DNA from: a virus
Lineage: Duplodnaviria > Caudoviricetes
DNA: 64,000 nucleotides
Virus record (IMG/VR): IMGVR_UViG_3300021254_000026
Span: 44,010-108,009 of that record
Direction: 5' to 3' (one strand)
The position numbers and the translations under genes were made by a program. Shown here one piece after another: positions 6,622-44,130 of the stretch (position 1 is its first letter; every line of letters starts with the position of its first letter). The notes below the pieces were generated by a model that searched no databases, was not told the origin of the DNA, and saw only the letters and a list, made by a program, of their open reading frames with translations.

Positions 6622-7014
6622 ATGTTATACCCTTTAGTAAAAGATGCTGATAGATATAGTAATGCTGTCCAAAATCTCGGCTCAGATTTTGTGAACCAGC
6701 CTTTTAGTGAAAAGGATTTAAAAGACTTTTCTATTCAAGTTTATTTTCCAGTACCGACTGGTACAGAGTATGCAGAGGAATTTATTACATTAGAACCGCC
6801 AGCAATAAAATATTGGGGAGAACTTTATGATAATTATTTGCCTGATGATTATTACGGTTATAATGGTAAATTATACGATTTGCTGAAATTTGACTTTAAA
6901 AAGGAAATGTTTAAAGAACATTCGTTGTTTTTGTTAAAAGCACATTTGAAGGCTTTCGCTCCTTATCATAGATTAGCAAAGAAACTATTAGTGAAATTAG
7001 AAAATTTAGAATGA
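6622..7014 (+). CDS. hypothetical protein, possible immunity partner
   Basis: 130 aa, no TAG; directly follows the effector-like gene. Confidence 0.65.
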   Translation: MLYPLVKDADRYSNAVQNLGSDFVNQPFSEKDLKDFSIQVYFPVPTGTEYAEEFITLEPPAIKYWGELYDNYLPDDYYGYNGKLYDLLKFDFKKEMFKEHSLFLLKAHLKAFAPYHRLAKKLLVKLENLE

Positions 7015-7451
7015 TCAAACAAAAAACTCCTACTAAATTAATAGCACGAATAAGCCTGTTATCCCGCTTCATTAATGCACAAGATAATGGAGGTATCTAT
7101 GAGAATACTTCCAACTATCAGACTGCATTAAAAGAAATAAAAGAAGGACGAAAAAAGACACATTGGATATGGTATGTCTTTCCACAGATGGCTGGAATAA
7201 AGGGAACCCATAGTCAAATGTCCAAATTCTATGGAATTAATGGTCGGGAAGAAGCCGAACTTTACATCAATCATCCCGTACTTCGTGAACGACTCATAGA
7301 AGCTACGCGAGCTATTCTTGAGAGTGATAAGACAGTGTATGAAATCTTTGGCGACGACACCATGAAAGTCCGAGCATGTATGCTCCTCTTTTCGTCAGTT
7401 TCTGATATATCGGAGTTTAAGAAATTGAAGAACAAATATTGCTGGAAATAA
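7011..7451 (+). CDS. DUF1810 family protein
   Basis: Signature ALKEIKEGRKKTHWIWYVFPQMAG...SKFYGI...EAELYINHPVLRERL. Confidence 0.85.
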   Translation: MIKQKTPTKLIARISLLSRFINAQDNGGIYENTSNYQTALKEIKEGRKKTHWIWYVFPQMAGIKGTHSQMSKFYGINGREEAELYINHPVLRERLIEATRAILESDKTVYEIFGDDTMKVRACMLLFSSVSDISEFKKLKNKYCWK

Positions 7452-7617
7452 AGAAAGTAGTCCCCGTACTTTCTATTAATAATGGAACTCACATGGAGTT
7501 ATGAACGGAAATAACGAATCAATTCAACCAGTGCAACGAACAGTCTTAAATTATTCTATTTCTATTTCATACTCACACCTCCTCTCCGGGGACGTAATAT
7601 AACGGAGAGTGAGGTGT
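7452..7617. ncRNA. candidate kissing-loop structured element
   Basis: Hairpin 7452-74 (loop GTCCCCG) and 14-bp hairpin 7575-7617 containing CGGGGAC (7587-93). Confidence 0.5.
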
Positions 7618-7660
7618 ATTTTGTACAACTATGACTACTGTTTCAGAATAATTTCACGAT

Positions 7661-7909
7661 ATGAAAAAATTTGCAATAGATCTTATAGAATCTGGTGATA
7701 TATATGACATCCAGAAATTAAATAGTTTTTTACATTCAGCAGATAAAAAAACTATAAGAGAGTTAAACTCTGAATTTCGTGATAAGTGGATTGAACATGG
7801 AACTCTTACTTACTATGCTGAAGACTTTCCTAAATATCAAAAGTCTAAGAGGTTAGAGGAAGGATTGGAAGTATTTGTACTCTTTTTATTATACAATGCT
7901 TTGCAATAA
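7661..7909 (+). CDS. hypothetical protein (possibly 5'-truncated)
   Basis: 82-aa ORF; upstream in-frame ATG 7631 is cut off by TAA 7649. Confidence 0.55.
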   Translation: MKKFAIDLIESGDIYDIQKLNSFLHSADKKTIRELNSEFRDKWIEHGTLTYYAEDFPKYQKSKRLEEGLEVFVLFLLYNALQ

Positions 7910-7948
7910 ACCATTCTATGTCTAAAATCTACGAACACCTCGATAAAT

Positions 7949-8124
7949 AAAAAAGGAGAGCGAATAAGTACCCTTATTACTCTCCAATGAATTATCTGAT
8001 AAAATCTGTTTATCTTTGCTCTATCTCTTATTTGTTGAGCAATAACTTTATCCGAAATAGCCGCACATGTACTCAAGAGAACCTGACATGTTGCCTCAAA
8101 GACTGGCTATATATGATAATTCAT
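7949..8124 (-). ncRNA. unassigned ~175-nt RNA: three-way junction plus terminator
   Basis: Perfect 10-bp closing stem 7987-96/8115-24; two internal arms; terminator GGAGAG/CTCTCC plus T6 on the - strand; own promoter. Confidence 0.7.
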
Positions 8125-8128
8125 GCTG

Positions 8129-8160
8129 CAAAGGTACGGACTATTCTTGTTATTTGCAAG
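8129..8160 (-). promoter_or_regulatory. Bacteroidota RpoD promoter on the - strand
   Basis: CTTG-N20-TACCTTTG; predicted start ~8124 coincides with the RNA closing stem. Confidence 0.7.
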
Positions 8161-8210
8161 GATTTTCCGTATCTTGCACAAGGTTGTGAGAACAGAATCT
8201 CAAATTTTAT

Positions 8211-8241
8211 TTTGATTTTTCATGCAAAGATGATATATTAA
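8211..8241 (+). promoter_or_regulatory. variant promoter for the tmRNA/tRNA unit
   Basis: TTTG-N19-TATATTAA; near-identical to the site at 28070. Confidence 0.55.
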
Positions 8242-8245
8242 TTAA

Positions 8246-8467
8246 GTTGTGATGAAATATTTTTGAAAATTTGTAAGACGAGGTTTCGATTACCTCCTAG
8301 TCCACTTTAGGATTTTTATTTTATGGGCTAGTTAAGGGATTGATTGCAAACAAGTAGAAATTATGGAGCAACAAGCCAAAATAAATGGCAATAAATCAAT
8401 TTTTCTTGATAGAGTCACTAGGTTGGCTGCTTGATAGCGTTAATAGTGAAGAACGAAATCTTCACTA
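8246..8467 (+). ncRNA. ssrA: circularly permuted (two-piece) tmRNA
   Basis: GAC + T-arm GAGGT-TTCGATT-ACCTC + 3' acceptor CTAGTCC-A (8297-8304) lies BEFORE the 5' acceptor GGGCTAG (8325-31); G3.U70 pair; tag GNKSIFLDRVTRLAA-TGA at 8387-8434; outer ends approximate. Confidence 0.9.
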
Positions 8468-8470
8468 ATT

Positions 8471-8543
8471 GCTTCGTTAACTCAATTGGTAGAGTAGCTG
8501 AATTGTAATCAGCCTGTTGTGGGTTCGATTCCTACACGAAGCT
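8471..8543 (+). tRNA. tRNA-Thr(UGU)
   Basis: Cloverleaf: GCTTCGT/ACGAAGC, anticodon arm GCTGA-ATTGTAA-TCAGC, TTCGA T-loop; CCA not encoded. Confidence 0.93.
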
Positions 8544-8551
8544 CTAAAAAT

Positions 8552-8624
8552 GCAGATATAGCTCAATTGGTAGAGTGCAAGTTTTCCAAACTTGAAGTTG
8601 CGGGATCGTACCCCGTTATCTGCT
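8552..8624 (+). tRNA. tRNA-Gly(UCC)
   Basis: GCAGATA/TATCTGC; CAAGT-TTTCCAA-ACTTG; atypical T-loop ATCGTAC. Confidence 0.9.
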
Positions 8625-8674
8625 CAAAAAGTTCCTCCAAGATACTTTTAATAAACTTTAAATTTATTTAACGT

Positions 8675-8986
8675 ATGAAAAGAATTTTAATTTTATTAAC
8701 AAGTTTAATTGTTGGATTATCTGTTTATTCTGTAGAAGGATTTGATACTCTTAATGTTGATGTTCCTTGTAACATTAAAATCTTTAAAACAGATGGATAT
8801 TTAGTAAGAGTATTAAATAAAAACGGAAAGCCGAGTAAAAATGTTACTTGGGAAATCAAAGATAGTGTTTTACAAATTAAAGGATCTGGTGAAGATGCAA
8901 ATGAAACTACCGTAGTTGTATTTGCTCCAAATGATCAAAAAATATTGATAGACACTAAAAAGTACGATTTAAAAGAGACAGAGTAA
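8675..8986 (+). CDS. putative exported protein
   Basis: Signal-peptide-like N-terminus; beta-rich body. Confidence 0.7.
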   Translation: MKRILILLTSLIVGLSVYSVEGFDTLNVDVPCNIKIFKTDGYLVRVLNKNGKPSKNVTWEIKDSVLQIKGSGEDANETTVVVFAPNDQKILIDTKKYDLKETE

Positions 8987-9001
8987 TTTAACAATTAATG
9001 C

Positions 9002-9025
9002 AGGAAAGGGAATTTGCCCTTTCCT
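9002..9025 (+). terminator. intergenic hairpin, possible terminator
   Basis: AGGAAAGGG/CCCTTTCCT stem; weak T-tail. Confidence 0.4.
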
Positions 9026-9064
9026 ATTGAGAGAGGAAAAGATAATTATTTTTAACTTAAAATT

Positions 9065-9232
9065 ATGATTATGAAGAAATTATTATTTGTATTTGCTGCT
9101 TTTGTAGCTATTTGTTTTGCTAGTTGTACTACTAAATGTACTTGTGACAATCAATCCGAAGAAGATACTACAGTTGTAGATACTGCAGTTATGGATACTT
9201 TAAGTGTAGATTCTTGTGAGGAAGTATGTTAA
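9065..9232 (+). CDS. small lipoprotein (55 aa)
   Basis: MIMKKLLFVFAAFVAICFASC lipobox; acidic DT-rich tail. Confidence 0.75.
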   Translation: MIMKKLLFVFAAFVAICFASCTTKCTCDNQSEEDTTVVDTAVMDTLSVDSCEEVC

Positions 9233-9449
9233 ATGGTTAACTGAGAGTAACCGATAGAAACATCTATTGTATGCAATTCCAGCATCGTTTATTGGTACAT
9301 TTCTATTTGGAGCAGGATTAGCTTGTGGAATGGAATTTAAAGATAAACAATATGGTAATAAATGGGATTGGTTAGATTTATCTGCAACCTTAATAGGATC
9401 TGGAATTGGATAGGCTTTACAATTATTATTAATCTGGATTATTAAATAA
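9216..9449 (+). CDS. small membrane protein (TAG=Gln)
   Basis: GTG start; KWLTESNR*KHLLYAIP...MEFKDKQYGNKWDWLDL...GIG*AL; 2 TAGs; TAATG overlap with the next gene. Confidence 0.7.
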
Positions 9450-9694
9450 TGGACGAAAAAATTAGTTATGAAGAACTCGAAAACAGAAATAATTTTCTTT
9501 TGAAAAGGGTTCGAGATTTACAGGATCAACTGTCTCAAATTTCTAATTTAAATAATACTTTATATTGGTTATTTAAAGCGGTTGAAAATAAGGAAATTTT
9601 TGATAAGGATTTCATAATTAAAATAAAGAATCATTTGCAAAATATACTTACTCCTCCAGAAAATGAAATATTAGAAAATAAAGAACAAGTGTAA
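9449..9694 (+). CDS. hypothetical coiled-coil protein
   Basis: 81-aa ORF. Confidence 0.7.
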   Translation: MDEKISYEELENRNNFLLKRVRDLQDQLSQISNLNNTLYWLFKAVENKEIFDKDFIIKIKNHLQNILTPPENEILENKEQV

Positions 9695-9854
9695 AAAAGA
9701 AGGTAAGTAGGCAATTCTTCCTGGATGGAAAGGTTATTTTAAATGGGACTATAGTTCAAATTAGTTTATATTTTATAATGGAAAATATAGATTAAATGAA
9801 TGTTAGTTAAATGAAAAAGTATCACACAGAGATGATTTTATATTGATAATATGA
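9663..9854 (+). CDS. small hypothetical protein (TAG=Gln), weakly DUF2829/Tad2-like
   Basis: 63 codons, 4 TAGs; EGK*AILPGWKGYFKWD...RDDF; ATGA overlap with RNase H. Confidence 0.6.
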
Positions 9855-10255
9855 TTATATATACGGATGGTTCTTGTAGAGCTAATGGAATAGGCGGAGT
9901 AGGGATAGTGTGGATTAAAGATAATAAAATAGTTAAAGAATACTCTAGAAGATTTGAGAAAGCAACTAATAATACAATGGAGTTAACGGCTATTTATATA
10001 GCATTATTATCTATTAAAAAACCAATTGAATCTTTAGAAATAATTACAGATTCACAGTATTCTATCGGAGTGTTAACAAATCCTTCTTGGAATCCAAAAA
10101 AGAACATCGGGTTAATTAGTAAAATAAAAAATCAAATTAAAAAAACTCAAACTTTGGTAGAATTTCCAATAATATTTTCACATACAAAAGGACATTCTAC
10201 TGATCAATTTAATAACAAATGTGATTTATTAGCAACACAAGCGAGTAGTTTATGA
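9851..10255 (+). CDS. rnhA: ribonuclease HI
   Basis: IYTDGSC, TNNTMEL, ITDSQY, HTKGH...NNKCDLLA. Confidence 0.95.
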   Translation: MIIYTDGSCRANGIGGVGIVWIKDNKIVKEYSRRFEKATNNTMELTAIYIALLSIKKPIESLEIITDSQYSIGVLTNPSWNPKKNIGLISKIKNQIKKTQTLVEFPIIFSHTKGHSTDQFNNKCDLLATQASSL

Positions 10256-10644
10256 CTAAAAGAGAGTTATTTAAAGAAGTAAATGTTAAATGTTTAGAAC
10301 TCCAAAGTAAGTATCGTATTAATTGGGGAGGATGTTGTTATGTAGCAGCGGTTTTAGCTGAATTATTAACCAAATATGATATTCCGTATCAAGTAGTTTA
10401 TTTTGCTGATGGAGGATGTCATTATGCTATTAGAGTATGTGATAGGTATCTAAATCGGGATGAATTTAATAAACATTATATTTATTATGAATATAACGCT
10501 AATTATGAATCGTTATATAAAGAATATTATAATGGAGATTGGAATGATGTGTATGATACAAAGTACAATGGAATTGTAAAAATTTCTTTAATGAGAATAT
10601 TTAATAAATATGGAAAGAGAAGAAATCGTCGAAAGACTCAATAA
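10252..10644 (+). CDS. hypothetical protein
   Basis: 130 aa; INWGGCC...H pattern. Confidence 0.7.
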   Translation: MTKRELFKEVNVKCLELQSKYRINWGGCCYVAAVLAELLTKYDIPYQVVYFADGGCHYAIRVCDRYLNRDEFNKHYIYYEYNANYESLYKEYYNGDWNDVYDTKYNGIVKISLMRIFNKYGKRRNRRKTQ

Positions 10645-10876
10645 AAGTTTTCAGAATAATACATTAAACGCTGATGAGTATCTTCCGTTACTTACTGAAT
10701 TTTTAGAGTGTGAGCATAAAGATAAAGTTGATAAAATTATTCAATTAGTTTTATATCAACCTTTGCTTTTAGGACAAACTATATTAAAAGTAAAAGAATA
10801 TTTTATAAATAAATATGAAATATTTACATTAAGTAAGATTATTAATAATCAATATATTAATTTATGTTTTTATTAA
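10610..10876 (+). CDS. hypothetical protein
   Basis: 88-aa ORF within the operon. Confidence 0.7.
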   Translation: MEREEIVERLNKSFQNNTLNADEYLPLLTEFLECEHKDKVDKIIQLVLYQPLLLGQTILKVKEYFINKYEIFTLSKIINNQYINLCFY

Positions 10877-10877
10877 A

Positions 10878-11102
10878 ATGAAAAAATTATTCTTATTATT
10901 TGGAATTATATTGTTATTATCTTCTTGTGATTCTGTAACAACTGTTTCTAATCCATATTATGATACTAATAGAATTGTAATTTATCAAAGTCCTTATTAC
11001 TATTGGACTAGACCTTATGTAAGAATTACTCCTCCACCTAGAATATATTATAGTCATCCAAATTATCATAGAAGACATCATTATCATGGTGGAAGACGAT
11101 AA
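10878..11102 (+). CDS. putative lipoprotein
   Basis: MKKLFLLFGIILLLSSC lipobox; Tyr/Pro/His-rich tail. Confidence 0.75.
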   Translation: MKKLFLLFGIILLLSSCDSVTTVSNPYYDTNRIVIYQSPYYYWTRPYVRITPPPRIYYSHPNYHRRHHYHGGRR

Positions 11103-11113
11103 AATTATAAATT

Positions 11114-11227
11114 ATGAAAGCTAAACATAGAAGAAAGAATCTGGAATTAAAACAAAAGTGGTTTGATGCACTTCCTAACAATGTTAAAAATACAATGACT
11201 AGACCTGGATCTGTTAAAAAGAGCTAA
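11114..11227 (+). CDS. small basic protein (37 aa)
   Basis: MKAKHRRKNLELKQKWFDALP...RPGSVKKS fills the intergenic gap. Confidence 0.6.
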   Translation: MKAKHRRKNLELKQKWFDALPNNVKNTMTRPGSVKKS

Positions 11228-11228
11228 T

Positions 11229-11558
11229 ATGGAAGAAAACGAAAAATCAGATTTTAGAATACAAGAAGAAGATTTCATAATGGAACCAGTTAAAGAAGGA
11301 TCTTCCTTCTTTAATTTGGTTTTTATGAAAAAGACTAAAAAAAGAAATACGGGTGAAATTGTAATTGAACCCGGAAAACCGATGTATGGATTACCATTGC
11401 ATGCAGCATTGTTAAGAATTGTACATCATAAAACTTCTAAAAAACTTCAAGGAAGAACTGTACAGCTAAAAGAATTTTTGGTTGAGTTTCAAAAAGAATT
11501 TAAAGAAATGATAGAACTATGTCACGAAACTTTACCAGAACGATTGAAATATCAATAA
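11229..11558 (+). CDS. hypothetical protein
   Basis: 109-aa ORF. Confidence 0.7.
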   Translation: MEENEKSDFRIQEEDFIMEPVKEGSSFFNLVFMKKTKKRNTGEIVIEPGKPMYGLPLHAALLRIVHHKTSKKLQGRTVQLKEFLVEFQKEFKEMIELCHETLPERLKYQ

Positions 11559-11857
11559 TCATAATTCTTTTAGTAGTAGAGTTCTTTTTTGTTAAGAGTT
11601 TATATTATAAATCAGATAATACGGATATACTCATTAGAAAAATAGATAAATTAGAAAAACAGTTAAATGTTTTATCTAATAAGAAAGATAGTATTAGAAT
11701 TGTTATAGATACTATCAACAACGAAATAGTTCGTAACAATTACTACTATGAAAAAACTAATGATATTATTATTTCTCAACCTAGTGATTCAGATGCCGCT
11801 TTTGTCAGATACTATATCAGTAGATTCTGTGAAAGCCACGGCTATAATCTTCAATGA
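11519..11857 (+). CDS. membrane-anchored coiled-coil protein (spanin-like topology)
   Basis: N-terminal TM segment, then coiled coil; overlaps the next gene. Confidence 0.55.
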   Translation: MSRNFTRTIEISIIIILLVVEFFFVKSLYYKSDNTDILIRKIDKLEKQLNVLSNKKDSIRIVIDTINNEIVRNNYYYEKTNDIIISQPSDSDAAFVRYYISRFCESHGYNLQ

Positions 11858-12095
11858 TCATGCTAGATTAGAGAAAGAAAATTCTCTTTTGCTGAGAAAA
11901 ATTGGATCTTTAGAAGATCTAAATAAACTTTACGTTCAATCTGATTCTATTAAAGATTCCGAAATAGAATTATATAAAGAAAAATCAAATAAAGATGAAC
12001 GTAAAATTACGAGACTGAAAAAATCCAGAAAATTAATCGGAATCGGTTCTGGAATTGGTGGAATTTTATTATTTATTTTAGGTATATTGATATGA
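11748..12095 (+). CDS. coiled-coil protein with C-terminal TM segment (spanin-like topology)
   Basis: Signal-like N-terminus, coiled coil, hydrophobic C-terminus. Confidence 0.55.
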   Translation: MKKLMILLFLNLVIQMPLLSDTISVDSVKATAIIFNDHARLEKENSLLLRKIGSLEDLNKLYVQSDSIKDSEIELYKEKSNKDERKITRLKKSRKLIGIGSGIGGILLFILGILI

Positions 12096-23574: not shown

Positions 23575-25879
<2,305 letters not shown>

Positions 25880-25883
<4 letters not shown>

Positions 25884-26413
25884 AAAAACTCAGAATAGGT
25901 TCCGATCTTGACGATACTCTGAATGTTTGGTTTGATATATATGTAAAACGTTTTGGATTTCCTAAAAATGATTATGAAATTACAAAAAATTGTCAGCAAA
26001 AGCTTAGAAAGGATAAGGATTTTTGGATTAATCTCCCTGTGTTACATCGTCCTAATTTTAATGTACATCTTTACTGCACTAAAAGAACATCTAGTAAAGA
26101 TTACGCAAAGAGATGGCTTGAAATAAACGGATTTAATGAAGCCCCTATATATCAGTGTTTTTATCAATATGGGAGTAAAGCTCCGCTTATTAAAGGAAAA
26201 TGCGATTTATTTATTGATGATAGTCCTTCTAACTTTCTTGATTTAAATAGAAAAGGAATTCCTTGTTTACTGATGGACGGACCGCACAATAGACATTTAG
26301 GTGAGATCCTTAGAGTTTATTCAATGGATTATGATGAACTGTTTGAAACTTTTGTTTTAGGACAAGTTACGAACATATTCAAAGATTTTGAAATGTATTT
26401 TCCTAAAAATTAA
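25880..26413 (+). CDS. HAD-superfamily 5'(3')-nucleotidase-like protein
   Basis: SDLDDT, FIDDSP, PHNR. Confidence 0.75.
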
Positions 26414-26415
26414 TT

Positions 26416-26682
26416 ATGATATATAATTTACAAAAAGAAATATCTAGAGACATACTTGAAAACGGAGTGTATGAGTCTTTAAGTTCTCCTTTAAAGAATG
26501 AAGATTTTACAGAGTATAGTAAAAGAATTTGTAAAGAAATTGACGATTGCCCATATTTGTATTGTCCAGATTATAACTTATTAGTTCCAATTAGTGAAGA
26601 ATTAATATGTAATAATGATAGTGTATATGGCGAGTTAGCTAATTTGATTTACGAAAGATGGAATTATGAAAATAGATTTTGA
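26416..26682 (+). CDS. hypothetical protein
   Basis: 88 aa. Confidence 0.65.
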   Translation: MIYNLQKEISRDILENGVYESLSSPLKNEDFTEYSKRICKEIDDCPYLYCPDYNLLVPISEELICNNDSVYGELANLIYERWNYENRF

Positions 26683-27694
26683 TTTATCTAAAATTAAAAT
26701 AACTCCTTTGTTAGAAACTTTAGTTCTTGAAGATATAAGTGATAATGACTATTTTTCAGAAAAATATTCAGATAGAATATCTAATTCTAGACTAGGATTA
26801 CTTAAATCTAAAGGGGCTAAAGCTTTTTTTAATAATGAGAAATTAGGATTTAATAGTTCATTTCAATTTGGGGGAGATCTTCACGCTCTTATACTTCAAC
26901 CAGAATCTTTTGAACTAATAGAAGGAGTAAATAAACCTACTGCAAAAGCGGGATTAGTTGCAGATTGGCTTTATAAAGGAGAAGAAACTTTTCCTTCAGA
27001 TGATGATATTAAAGTTGCATCTATTAAGTGTTCTTATTATAAAGATAAATTAACTCAAAAGAGAATTGATGAATTTAGGCAAAAAGCAGAACCTTATTGG
27101 AAGCAAAGATTTATATATGAAATGAATAATCCTAAATCCGATAAAATTAGAATTTATACAGATGAAAAGAGTCAGAATTTATTAAAATTTTGTATGGAAT
27201 CTATAAATTCTAATGAACAAATACAGGAACTTTTACATCCTTCTGGATTGATAGAAGATCCATATTCTACTTGTGAAAAGACAATTTTAATGGATATACA
27301 AGTAGAAATTCCAGGATATGATCCTGTAATATATAAGTTTAAATCTAAACTTGATAATTTTACAATAGATAAAGAAAATAATGTTATTACAGTTAACGAT
27401 TTAAAAACTACATCTAGATTAGCTAAAGATTTTAAAGAAGTCATAGATTATTATTCATATAATAGAGAAATAGCTATCTATTCTTGGTTGTTGTCATATT
27501 GTTCTAAAAAGTTTTTTAATATGAATAATGCTACAATTAAAGGAAATTTTTTAGTAGTATCAACAATTCCTGAATACGATACTGCCGTTTATCCTATGAC
27601 TCCAGAATTATTTAGAAGAGGATTTAAAGAGTTTGTATATTTAATGAGAGTTGTAGCTTATTTAAATATTATAAAAGGTTATAAATTTAGTTAA
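26666..27694 (+). CDS. PD-(D/E)xK exonuclease (RecE/ExoVIII-like)
   Basis: ISNSRL, FGGDLHALILQP, KSKLD...NDLKTT, YNREIAIY. Confidence 0.85.
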   Translation: MKIDFDLSKIKITPLLETLVLEDISDNDYFSEKYSDRISNSRLGLLKSKGAKAFFNNEKLGFNSSFQFGGDLHALILQPESFELIEGVNKPTAKAGLVADWLYKGEETFPSDDDIKVASIKCSYYKDKLTQKRIDEFRQKAEPYWKQRFIYEMNNPKSDKIRIYTDEKSQNLLKFCMESINSNEQIQELLHPSGLIEDPYSTCEKTILMDIQVEIPGYDPVIYKFKSKLDNFTIDKENNVITVNDLKTTSRLAKDFKEVIDYYSYNREIAIYSWLLSYCSKKFFNMNNATIKGNFLVVSTIPEYDTAVYPMTPELFRRGFKEFVYLMRVVAYLNIIKGYKFS

Positions 27695-42556: not shown

Positions 42557-44130
42557 TAAAAGACCTTGAAATAGCAATGAGAATGGATAATGTTGAAGAA
42601 ATGCCTATTCATCATACTCATTGGTGTAATAAAGAAGATTGTAATTTGATATTAGAGTATAACAAAAATGACGTAGAAGCTACTTATAGATTTCTTCTTG
42701 TCACTTTAGGCAAAACAGACTATCCGTTATATAAAGGAAAAAATAAACTTCAACTTCGATTCGATTTAAATAAAAAATTTGGAGTAAACGTAACTAATAT
42801 GGGCGATGTTCCAATGGGTGAAGAATTAATGTTACAATTATATTCTAGAGCCGTTGGAATAAATCCATATGAACTTAAAAGACAAGGTGGAACACCACGC
42901 TCCGAAATTAAATTGAAAGATTGTATTCCATATTGGTGTAATATAAAATCTAAAGAATTTAATAAATTTCTAGATAAAATTAAATCTACTATTATTAAAG
43001 GTGAAAAAGGAGAATTTTCTTATTCTGTAATTTTTCATGAAAATAAGTTTGATTTTGGAATTGGGGGTGCTCATAGTTCAATAAAACCAGGAGTATATGA
43101 ATCAAATGATTATTGGCAAATAGTAGATTTTGATATTTCATCACTATATCCAAGTGTAGCTAAATCTTTAGGTTTATATCCAGCACATCTTGGTCCAGAA
43201 TTTATGCAATTATATTCTCAGTTTATCGACAAACGAATTGCTGAAAAACATAAACCTAAAAATGAACGAGATAATGTTCTTATTGAAGGATTTAAACTTA
43301 TACTCAATGGAACCTACGGTAAGAGTAATGAAGATAAGTCTTTTCTTTATGATCCAATGTATACTTTTAGTACAACTATTGCAGGACAACTATTTATATG
43401 TATGTGGGCTGAAAGAATGGTAAAAGCTTGTCCAGAACTAGTGTTCTTGCAAACAAATACGGATGGAATAACCGTAAGAATACCTAGAAAATCCTTACAA
43501 GCTATTAGAGAAGTTAATGAACAATTAACTAAAGAAACAACACTAGTTATTGAAGAAGCGTTCTATTCTAAGATGTTTTTAAGGGATGTAAATAATTACG
43601 GAGCTGTATATGAAGATTCTACACCTGATAATGAACATATTAAATTAAAAGGAGACTTTGAGATAGATAAAGAATTTCACAAAGATCCTTCTATGAGAAT
43701 TGTTCCTCTTGCTGTAAAAGAATATTTTGTATATGGAATTCCTGTTGAAGAAACAATAAAAAATAACAGAGATATTTTTAATTTTTGTATAAGATTAAAA
43801 ACAAATTCTGGATGTACTGCATATTTCAAGTATTTTGACGAAAACAAGCACCTAAAGGATAAACCTCTAGATAGAACAACTCGATATTACATAAGTAATG
43901 GTTATATAGGATTAGATCCTACGTCAGAAAATGGAATTATAACTAAAAATTTCAACGACGGAAGAATAACTGGAGTAAATGTTGGGTTTTCAGCAACTTT
44001 ATTTAATAAAGTTATAAAATTAGATAATTGGGAAGATTATCATATTGATTATAAATTTTATATATCTGAAGCTAATAAATTAAAGAACCCGTTAGCTATT
44101 AAACAATTAGATTTATTTAGTGATTTATGA
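42557..44130 (+). CDS. polB: family B DNA polymerase, exon 2
   Basis: YNKNDV, DFDISSLYPS, KLILNGTYG, QTNTDG; spliced product 652 aa. Confidence 0.93.

Follow-up and report, generated by a model that had tools for sequence, protein, structure and literature searches.

The segment 8245-8470 (plus strand) of the window, the 64,000-nt stretch of DNA analysed here (positions 44,010 to 108,009 of the IMG/VR virus record IMGVR_UViG_3300021254_000026), was identified as a phage-encoded gene for a circularly permuted (two-piece) transfer-messenger RNA (tmRNA, ssrA). We consider it likely that this two-piece gene is a member of a phage family of tmRNAs and that it was inherited or acquired in an already permuted form rather than rearranged in place. 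The Rfam family RF04321 (tmRNA_permuted), the general permuted-tmRNA model of Rfam 15 that merges the alpha, beta and cyanobacterial models (PMC11915505), matched 8245-8434 over the full model with 47.3 bits against a gathering score of 47 (E = 3.3e-6 for the 64-kb window searched against all families, 1.3e-9 for the genome). When the threshold of ARAGORN was lowered to 90% (-ps90), the program also reported this tmRNA, labelled it 'Permuted' and agreed on its halves and on its tag, GNKSIFLDRVTRLAA. Furthermore, the precursor folded as a single strand with z = -2.8 relative to shuffled sequence, and a two-strand fold (-54 kcal/mol) recovered the acceptor stem together with three inter-piece helix segments. 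An earlier note, made from the letters alone, had proposed a permuted two-piece tmRNA in a TAG-recoded crAss-like genome; the RF04321 match, the ARAGORN call at the relaxed threshold, the large terminase and the in-frame TAGs of the phage bear this out, and all the coordinates that it gave agreed with the sequence. The parts of the gene and the neighbouring elements are as follows.

8211-8241, plus strand: candidate promoter, TTTG-N19-TATATTAA, a motif match placed by its position
8245-8304, plus strand: acceptor piece (3' half, tRNA-like domain), from the RF04321 alignment, ARAGORN -ps90 and both folds
8305-8324, plus strand: intervening segment (spacer), 20 nt, AU-rich, expected to be removed during maturation
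8325-8386, plus strand: coding piece, 5' part, 62 nt, from the RF04321 alignment and the folds
8387 (GGC) to 8431 (GCT), plus strand: tag frame GNKSIFLDRVTRLAA, from ARAGORN, with the stops TGA (8432-8434) and TAG (8435-8437)
8444-8467, plus strand: post-tag hairpin, from the fold, with a 9-bp stem (8444-8452/8459-8467) and the loop ACGAAA
8471-8544, plus strand: tRNA-Thr (UGU), ARAGORN default settings, Rfam tRNA 62.6 bits
8552-8625, plus strand: tRNA-Gly (UCC), ARAGORN default settings, Rfam tRNA 64.6 bits

The tRNA-like domain has an acceptor stem in which all seven pairs form between GGGCTAG (8325-8331) in the coding piece and CTAGTCC (8297-8303) in the acceptor piece, with G3 paired to U70 and A 8304 as discriminator (A73); these are the alanine identity elements that had been pointed out in the earlier note. 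GAC (8277-8279) precedes the T-arm (8280-8296, GAGGT-TTCGATT-ACCTC), which has five of five pairs and a loop of the TTCGAnT type, and a D-loop analogue occupies 8332-8343. CCA is not encoded after A 8304, where the bases are CTT. A long helix (helix 2) is predicted between the halves in three segments of 7, 7 and 5 bp: in the minimum-energy fold the 3' strands at 8270-8276, 8259-8265 and 8246-8250 of the acceptor piece pair with the 5' strands at 8344-8350, 8355-8361 and 8368-8372 of the coding piece, and the segment beside the T-arm (TTTGTAA/TTGCAAA) pairs at all seven positions. An A-rich resume context (8373-8386) leads into the tag frame, which has no start codon, agrees with the resume consensus of ARAGORN, ends in LAA and is closed by two stops. 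The reading of an LAA-ending tag that stops on TGA was confirmed, and no tag read in the family stops on TAG. The hairpin at 8444-8467, which closes the coding piece, resembles the post-tag hairpin of ordinary tmRNAs, and tRNA-Thr starts 4 nt past it.

The gene is compact, as had been noticed from the letters, and has no pseudoknot ring: pseudoknot 1 and the region of pseudoknots 2-4 are both absent. The long helix and the resume codon are just 14 unpaired nt apart, the RNA ends after a single hairpin, and the optional hairpin that RF04321 allows past the long helix is deleted in the alignment. Because the 5' end is only 62 nt from the resume codon, there is no room for pseudoknot 1. Pseudoknot 1 is usually present in tmRNAs. 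Nine permuted relatives have 59-68 nt between their 5' end and the resume codon, one-piece genes 78-97 nt; this pre-tag length thus tracks the permuted class, and the loss of pseudoknot 1 is a trait of that class, not a peculiarity of the window gene. Since pseudoknots are also absent in other permuted members of the family and reduced tmRNAs exist, pseudoknot 1 is treated here as a typical and not a strictly defining feature of tmRNAs.

DNA contigs from two further sequencing runs, belonging to two studies, span both halves of the gene (X2, 7990-8810; X5, 8200-8900), so the permuted order is not an assembly artefact. Within the gene, the X2 and X5 strains differ from the window by three substitutions only: G to A at 8310 in the spacer, the sole substitution common to both strains; C to T at 8351, a base that is unpaired in the fold; and T to C at 8392, a synonymous change in the tag (AAT to AAC). 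The pattern agrees with constraint and is too sparse for proof. In addition, the X5 strain is fully divergent upstream of 8200 and keeps everything from 8200 on; the unit that begins at the candidate promoter therefore travels as a module.

We then compared the gene with other phage tmRNAs. The earlier note was aware of no permuted tmRNA from a crAss-like phage, and this claim to be the first has to be given up: RF04321 scored above its cut-off in the crAss-like phages cr50_1 (60.3 bits), cr130_1 (54.4 bits) and cr10_1 (49.6 bits), and cr10_1 (Suoliviridae, NC_055875.1) carries at 26352-26737 a RefSeq feature 'transfer-messenger RNA, SsrA' that is permuted. Two IMG/VR loci, L206 (56.3 bits) and L196 (47.6 bits), also scored above the cut-off, while cr52_1 (41.3 bits) and cr131_1 (35.3 bits) scored below it. 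The one-piece model RF00023 gave no match above its cut-off in cr10_1, cr50_1, cr130_1, cr52_1 or cr131_1, the best being a 23-bit partial match in cr50_1. The Suoliviridae genes share with the window gene the permuted order, the lack of an encoded CCA, a pre-tag part of 59-68 nt that leaves no room for pseudoknot 1, a multi-segment inter-piece helix, tags that start with Gly or Asp (such as GNNFVTDYTQLAVA), a post-tag hairpin followed by a tRNA or tRNA-like element, and modest RF04321 scores of 35-60 bits. The window gene thus has the marks of the crAss-type permuted genes (permuted order, no CCA, a pre-tag part of ~60 nt and a Gly/Asp-start tag). It differs from the Suoliviridae genes in its spacer, which is 20 nt against ~100-230 nt with a tRNA-like T-arm, and in its tag, which ends in RLAA where theirs have a DYT motif and end in -VA or -GA; moreover, the Suoliviridae phages are ~95-104 kb and their terminases are only ~28% identical to that of the window phage.

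A scan of IMG/VR for the helix-to-T-arm junction that the window gene and several of the Suoliviridae genes have in common (TGTAAGACGAG..TTCGA.T..CTC) returned 37 loci, which a script classed as 16 permuted (spacers 17-127 nt), 17 one-piece and four unclassable; over all related permuted genes, spacers range from 17 to ~230 nt. One of these genes (L196/L207), from a complete TAG-recoded phage of 97.5 kb with a terminase 29% identical to that of the window phage, has a 17-nt spacer and the same layout as the window gene. When acceptor piece, pre-tag part and tag were combined, the closest relative was L206/L210 (IMG/VR contigs 3300031722_001022 and 3300029998_000552), which is also permuted. 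L206 gave the only significant direct DNA match to the window tmRNA (blastn, 80% over 56 nt of the acceptor piece), and this match reaches past the tRNA-like domain on its upstream side. The L206 gene has the tag GKTINFFRPTLRMAV, which lines up well with GNKSIFLDRVTRLAA, and a pre-tag part of 63 nt; it differs from the window gene in having a 74-nt spacer, the acceptor stem GGGGGTG/CACCTCC and, at its end, a terminator-like hairpin with a T-run where the window gene has a hairpin and then a tRNA. The L206 phage is not crAss-like, as its neighbouring terminase and portal genes belong to other families, which shows that such permuted genes move between unrelated phages. When the tmRNA region was compared directly at the DNA level with 50,697 phage records, nothing meaningful came up, and the junction pattern returned from the JGI metagenomes only a contig already found (G003).

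This contig (G003/L003) was rejected as a sister of the window gene. It is permuted, with the same acceptor stem and a GKS tag, and the shared stem is a product of the search pattern; it encodes CCA, has an 89-nt pre-tag part and shows no match to the terminase or polymerase of the window phage, and the tree described below joins it with the one-piece gene G005 (support 99/91), its tie to the window gene being weak (85/70). Its permuted tmRNA (L003:6110-6488; 3300010396_000007, 98.7 kb) scores 72.8 bits with RF04321 and lies in an unrelated phage; the tag GKSVYDKMVAA is followed by 15 further codons before a stop, and the ancestral stop after Ala-Ala looks lost.

Two further loci add to the range of gene forms. 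The crAssphage cr128_1 (Steigviridae, NC_055885.1) holds an unannotated tmRNA at ~7824-9147 (L168:1462-2785), with the 5' end GGGGCATG and the tag GNTYRAAA, whose T-loop is split by a ~867-nt group I intron (Rfam Intron_gpI, 86 bits) that carries an annotated endonuclease gene on the opposite strand. With this intron form and the others, crAss-like phages hold all three known forms of the tmRNA gene, and the family to which the window gene belongs comprises one-piece, permuted and intron-interrupted genes. In another crAss-like contig (L186:592-3285; 3300045988_045546), a Hatchet ribozyme, RAGATH-9 and RAGATH-20 lie within ~3 kb upstream of a permuted tmRNA of the cr52_1 type.

The relatives of the window phage by terminase carry one-piece tmRNAs. 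Relatives were collected by the large terminase subunit, which worked better than DNA polymerase (only two loci); 62 loci had a related terminase (41-79% identity), and 48 of these records were searched with both Rfam models. Closer relatives, with terminases more than 80% identical, were represented by fragments of 7-39 kb. No further permuted tmRNA was found in the 48 records, the weak RF04321 hits in them being 3' ends of one-piece genes, tRNAs or noise. One-piece tmRNAs scored above the RF00023 cut-off in nine records, among them G047 (terminase 74% identical) and G002 (related via DNA polymerase), and slightly below it in three more; G005 (terminase 49%) has a 312-nt one-piece gene whose acceptor stem is identical to that of the window gene. 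The tmRNAs of the relatives all have G3.U70 and A73, none encodes CCA, and their tags begin with Gly or Asp and finish with [MVLK]-A-A; the stop is TAA or TGA in every case, never TAG. The sequences of their acceptor and T stems vary between genes with the pairing kept, and the helix segment beside the T-arm likewise persists, with substitutions in one or both strands. Both the tag frame and the pairing of the acceptor stem, on whose conservation in related phages the earlier note had staked its reading, are kept. The one-piece genes (G047, G008, G036, G005, G051, G020 and others) are like the window gene in G3.U70, A73, the lack of CCA and a place beside tRNA genes, and they share its phage clade, G047 also sharing the T-stem and G005 the acceptor stem. 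They are unlike it in their standard order, their length of 312-569 nt, the presence of pseudoknot regions and a pre-tag part of 78-97 nt. The window gene is not at the position of the G047 and G008 tmRNAs, which lie inside a tRNA cluster of the order Glu-Ala-Asp-tmRNA-Ser-Val.

To place the window gene, a tree was built from 48 tRNA-like domains (75 columns). One-piece and permuted forms interleave on it, and its well-supported branches force at least three changes of form. The approximately unbiased (AU) test rejected a single clade of all permuted genes (p 0.008) and a single clade of the permuted genes that are not of the betaproteobacterial (beta) type (p 0.0013). The beta-type genes group by themselves (support 100/100), apart from the window gene, and a 99/99 branch parts the junction type of the window from that of G047, G008 and G036. 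The Gly/Asp-start tags, as opposed to the Ala start of the beta-type tags read, also speak for a separate origin of the family. From these sequence comparisons, the family probably arose separately from the two-piece lineages of Alphaproteobacteria, Betaproteobacteria and cyanobacteria, and its history would include more than one permutation or reversion. We presume that it is linked to Bacteroidota-type tmRNAs, and its carriers are probably phages that infect Bacteroidota, namely crAss-like phages of several families and some unrelated phages. The independent permutation that the earlier note had inferred is hence plausible for the family as set against the alpha, beta and cyanobacterial lineages; for the window copy alone it is not favoured, as the closest relative, L206, is already permuted and sits in an unrelated phage. 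On balance we lean towards the view that the window copy was inherited or acquired already permuted.

An alternative, which we regard as unlikely though more probable than the two that follow, is that the gene was rearranged within its own lineage from the one-piece tmRNA of its relatives, for example by tandem duplication and subsequent loss of the outer halves. The terminase relatives (41-79%) do carry one-piece genes, with no other permuted gene in the records searched. Like the window gene, G047 has a rare U-A pair where the T-stem meets its loop, and the two genes share 14 identical nt of resume context; the T-arm pattern common to them gave 0 matches in ~185,000 bacterial species genomes; G005 is one-piece with the identical acceptor stem. 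The tag end R-L-A-A fits the R-[MV]-A-A of the relatives and not the -V-A of Suoliviridae, the spacer starts with CTTTA like the 3' trailers of the relatives and ends with TTAT like their 5' leaders, and the AU test keeps the window gene as a sister of G047 (p 0.27) or G005 (p 0.49). However, the best overall match is the permuted L206 gene of a phage that is not crAss-like, and the short spacer, the 62-nt pre-tag part, the three-part helix and the hairpin followed by a tRNA are common to the permuted genes of other crAss-like families. The position outside the Glu-Ala-Asp-tmRNA-Ser-Val cluster and the 99/99 branch that divides the window junction type from that of G047, G008 and G036 also argue against a rearrangement in place.

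It is far less probable that the locus is a non-functional remnant, a scrambled or decaying tmRNA gene that looks intact because the rearrangement is recent. The borderline model score, the absence of pseudoknot 1 and the patchy or weak tmRNAs of the relatives (32.7 bits in G008, none in G011 and G033) would fit such a remnant. Against this, all pairings are intact, and so is the tag frame, from its proper resume context to the LAA end and the two stops; three strains, ~1-2% apart over the bridged stretches, keep the gene, with changes that are unpaired, in the spacer or synonymous; and the same reduced design recurs above the Rfam cut-off in complete phages of other families, which argues that the design works.

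Capture from a bacterium of a known two-piece lineage can practically be dismissed: the lineage-specific models RF01849, RF01850 and RF01851 all stayed below their gathering scores for the window gene, and although the best of them, the betaproteobacterial RF01850, gave a partial match across the tRNA-like domain (model positions 64-180, 33.9 bits against a cut-off of 84) and the acceptor stem recurs in beta-type permuted genes on other IMG/VR phage contigs, that stem carries no weight because the search pattern produced it, true beta-type phage genes score 137-156 bits with RF01850 and 139-144 bits with RF04321 (33.9 and 47.3 for the window gene), they encode CCA and Ala-start tags where the window gene has no CCA and a Gly start, and their 100/100 clade lies away from it on the tree.

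Several points weigh against our reading of the locus as a family member acquired in permuted form. The RF04321 score barely reaches its cut-off, and ARAGORN at default settings missed the tmRNA and reported only tRNA-Thr and tRNA-Gly. The pseudoknots expected of a tmRNA are missing. No conserved sibling was found at the same genomic position, which leaves the window copy without a covariation test, and the pairing between its halves could be inherited and not selected. The tree has few columns, many of them paired and so not independent, and acceptor stems converge; the AU test rejected none of four alternative sisters of the window gene (p 0.08-0.49: G005 0.49, G047 0.27, L196 0.22, and a group with G047, G008 and G036 0.08). 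Scans for promoters did no better than chance: sigma-70-like sites numbered 5 against 3.8 expected from shuffles, and the TTTG-N19-TAnnTTnA motif was not enriched (4 sites against 5.0 expected). The record is ~62% complete, leaving room for a second tmRNA gene. For the locus itself, the gain is a correct annotation that the default ARAGORN settings overlook. For the family, we put forward a wider reading tentatively, as one that may well prove wrong: the form of the tmRNA gene would be unusually changeable in phages of Bacteroidota-type hosts, with one-piece, two-piece and group-I-intron forms mixed in a single sequence family, having been permuted more than once and independently of the three bacterial lineages, and the lineage of the window phage would have replaced its one-piece gene by, or converted it into, a pseudoknot-free form of ~208 nt.

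The phage itself, a large phage of the animal gut, is represented by a 108-kb IMG/VR record. Its large terminase is crAss-like, with ~28% identity to classified Crassvirales and 44-47% to two records of human-gut phages that are unclassified. In its late genes, TAG is read as a sense codon: a 2861-codon frame opens solely under TAG recoding, and the terminase gene has 8 in-frame TAGs. A tRNA with the anticodon CTA (amber suppressor) lies upstream of the window in the same genome (L033:10672-10834), where it adjoins a tRNA-Ser (ACU) on the minus strand, and a tRNA-like gene with an odd two-base anticodon call was seen at genome position 25049-25118. The relatives defined by the terminase have genomes of ~175-185 kb with terminal repeats. 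The 'zeta' crAss-like group has genomes of 155-189 kb, many tRNAs and amber or opal suppression (PMC12386605); the relatives fit this group, to which the window phage may belong. Elsewhere in the window, 24113-25669 encodes a full-length GroEL-like chaperonin (PHROG 5725, E = 4.5e-156). Closer to the tmRNA, an open reading frame at 9204-9449 contains three in-frame TAGs, and the DNA of 9229-9450 shares 68-77% identity with genes for a 'putative lipoprotein' in eight RefSeq crAss-like phages of Suoliviridae and Steigviridae. Because this is a DNA-level similarity to classified Crassvirales, the only one in the 5 kb searched (7000-12000), it hints at recent gene exchange ~800 nt from the tmRNA.

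As for transcription, the candidate promoter can also be read as sigma-70-like (TTGATT-16-TATATT, with TG upstream) and would place the transcription start at ~8246, the beginning of the outermost inter-piece helix. tRNA-Gly is probably part of the same transcription unit. In RNA contigs of two metatranscriptomes, X4 (the source's own sample) and X16 (another study), 8131-8738 was uncovered, a gap that takes in the tmRNA and the phage tRNAs, and the flanks 7944-8130 and 8739-8900 were covered; as contigs cannot show small structured RNAs or RNA ends, this gap was counted neither way on expression. RNA contigs from two studies match the left flank exactly (7944-8130 and 7972-8130), and both end at 8130, unlike the DNA contigs, which continue past it. 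On the minus strand this segment has a multi-branched fold of ~187 nt with a terminal GGAGAG...CTCTCC hairpin and a T-run after it; no Rfam family matches the segment, and the X5 strain lacks it. It has the look of an expressed small RNA whose transcription leads away from the tmRNA gene. As a candidate for the pseudoknot region that the one-piece relatives have and the window gene lacks, it was rejected, since it shows no similarity to those regions.

The working of the RNA may be pictured as follows. A transcript from ~8246 would run through both tmRNA halves into tRNA-Thr and tRNA-Gly. Host RNase P would cut before G8325 and again before tRNA-Thr at 8471, a host 3' processing enzyme would trim the acceptor piece to A8304, and the host CCA-adding enzyme would supply CCA; the phage's own tRNA genes likewise encode none. 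Comparable post-tag hairpins followed by a tRNA or tRNA-like element were found in cr10_1, cr50_1 and L196, and because such an element trails several related permuted genes, the arrangement suggests that RNase P cleavage at the 5' end of tRNA-Thr sets the 3' end of the coding piece. The resulting acceptor piece of ~62 nt and coding piece of 146 nt would be held together by the 7-bp acceptor stem and ~19 bp of helix. Host alanyl-tRNA synthetase would charge the RNA by way of G3.U70 and A73, host SmpB would deliver it to stalled ribosomes, and translation would resume at GGC 8387, add (A)GNKSIFLDRVTRLAA and stop at UGA, so that tagged proteins would end in AGNKSIFLDRVTRLAA. By analogy, the LAA end of the tag resembles the proteolysis signal of bacterial ssrA tags. 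The search for smpB proposed in the earlier note came back empty, with no SmpB gene in the 108-kb record or in five relatives (four of them complete); hence SmpB, alanyl-tRNA synthetase, RNase P and the CCA-adding enzyme must all be those of the host.

The earlier note had assigned the RNA a role in rescuing ribosomes during the TAG code switch, for which the comparison gave no support. Among relatives that are at least 80% complete, tmRNA was present in four of seven TAG-recoded and three of seven non-recoded phages, and thus no association between tmRNA and TAG recoding was found. For the tmRNAs of marine phages, upkeep of translation in infection has been proposed (PMC9004378), and by analogy such general upkeep would be more economical here than a role in the TAG switch. 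The benefit to the phage is likely to be general ribosome rescue and translational capacity in infection, not one specific to the switch.

In searchable full-text literature, tmRNA was named together with crAss-like phages or Crassvirales only in mentions of methods and software, and the tmRNA database paper, which covers RefSeq viruses, assigns its permuted forms to the alpha, beta and cyano types only. The crAss-type permuted family is thus catalogued in RefSeq annotation with no published description found in that literature, and the window copy adds a member to it, from a phage clade whose other tmRNA genes are one-piece. Two-piece tmRNAs are described from Alphaproteobacteria, a betaproteobacterial lineage and cyanobacteria (Keiler et al., 2000; Sharkady and Williams, 2004, as cited in PMC9004378). 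The window gene is like these in having the 3' half upstream, an intervening segment that is removed and pieces that base-pair; it is unlike them in lacking CCA and pseudoknot 1, in its Gly-start tag and in matching none of the lineage models. Two-piece forms also account for 53 of 133 unique phage tmRNAs and occur in marine phages, namely the OM43 phage Melnitz, pelagimyophages and cyanophages (PMC9004378). These resemble the window gene in being phage-encoded with no requirement for a phage SmpB stated (PMC9004378); however, they cluster with the alphaproteobacterial or cyanobacterial lineages of their hosts, some with a glutamine riboswitch, whereas the window gene falls outside those lineages. 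Phages of Bacteroidota-type hosts appear to be a fourth source of two-piece tmRNAs, one borne by phages, in which the gene form has changed repeatedly and pseudoknot 1 is regularly lost. If the ~208-nt form of the wider reading is active, it would be the smallest tag-encoding tmRNA design and would mean that pseudoknot 1 is dispensable in nature. In the window phage and its relatives, nature has set one-piece and minimal two-piece tmRNAs in similar genomic backgrounds, and comparing them could show which parts of a tmRNA are truly needed and whether such RNAs serve the general upkeep of translation or the stop-codon switch.

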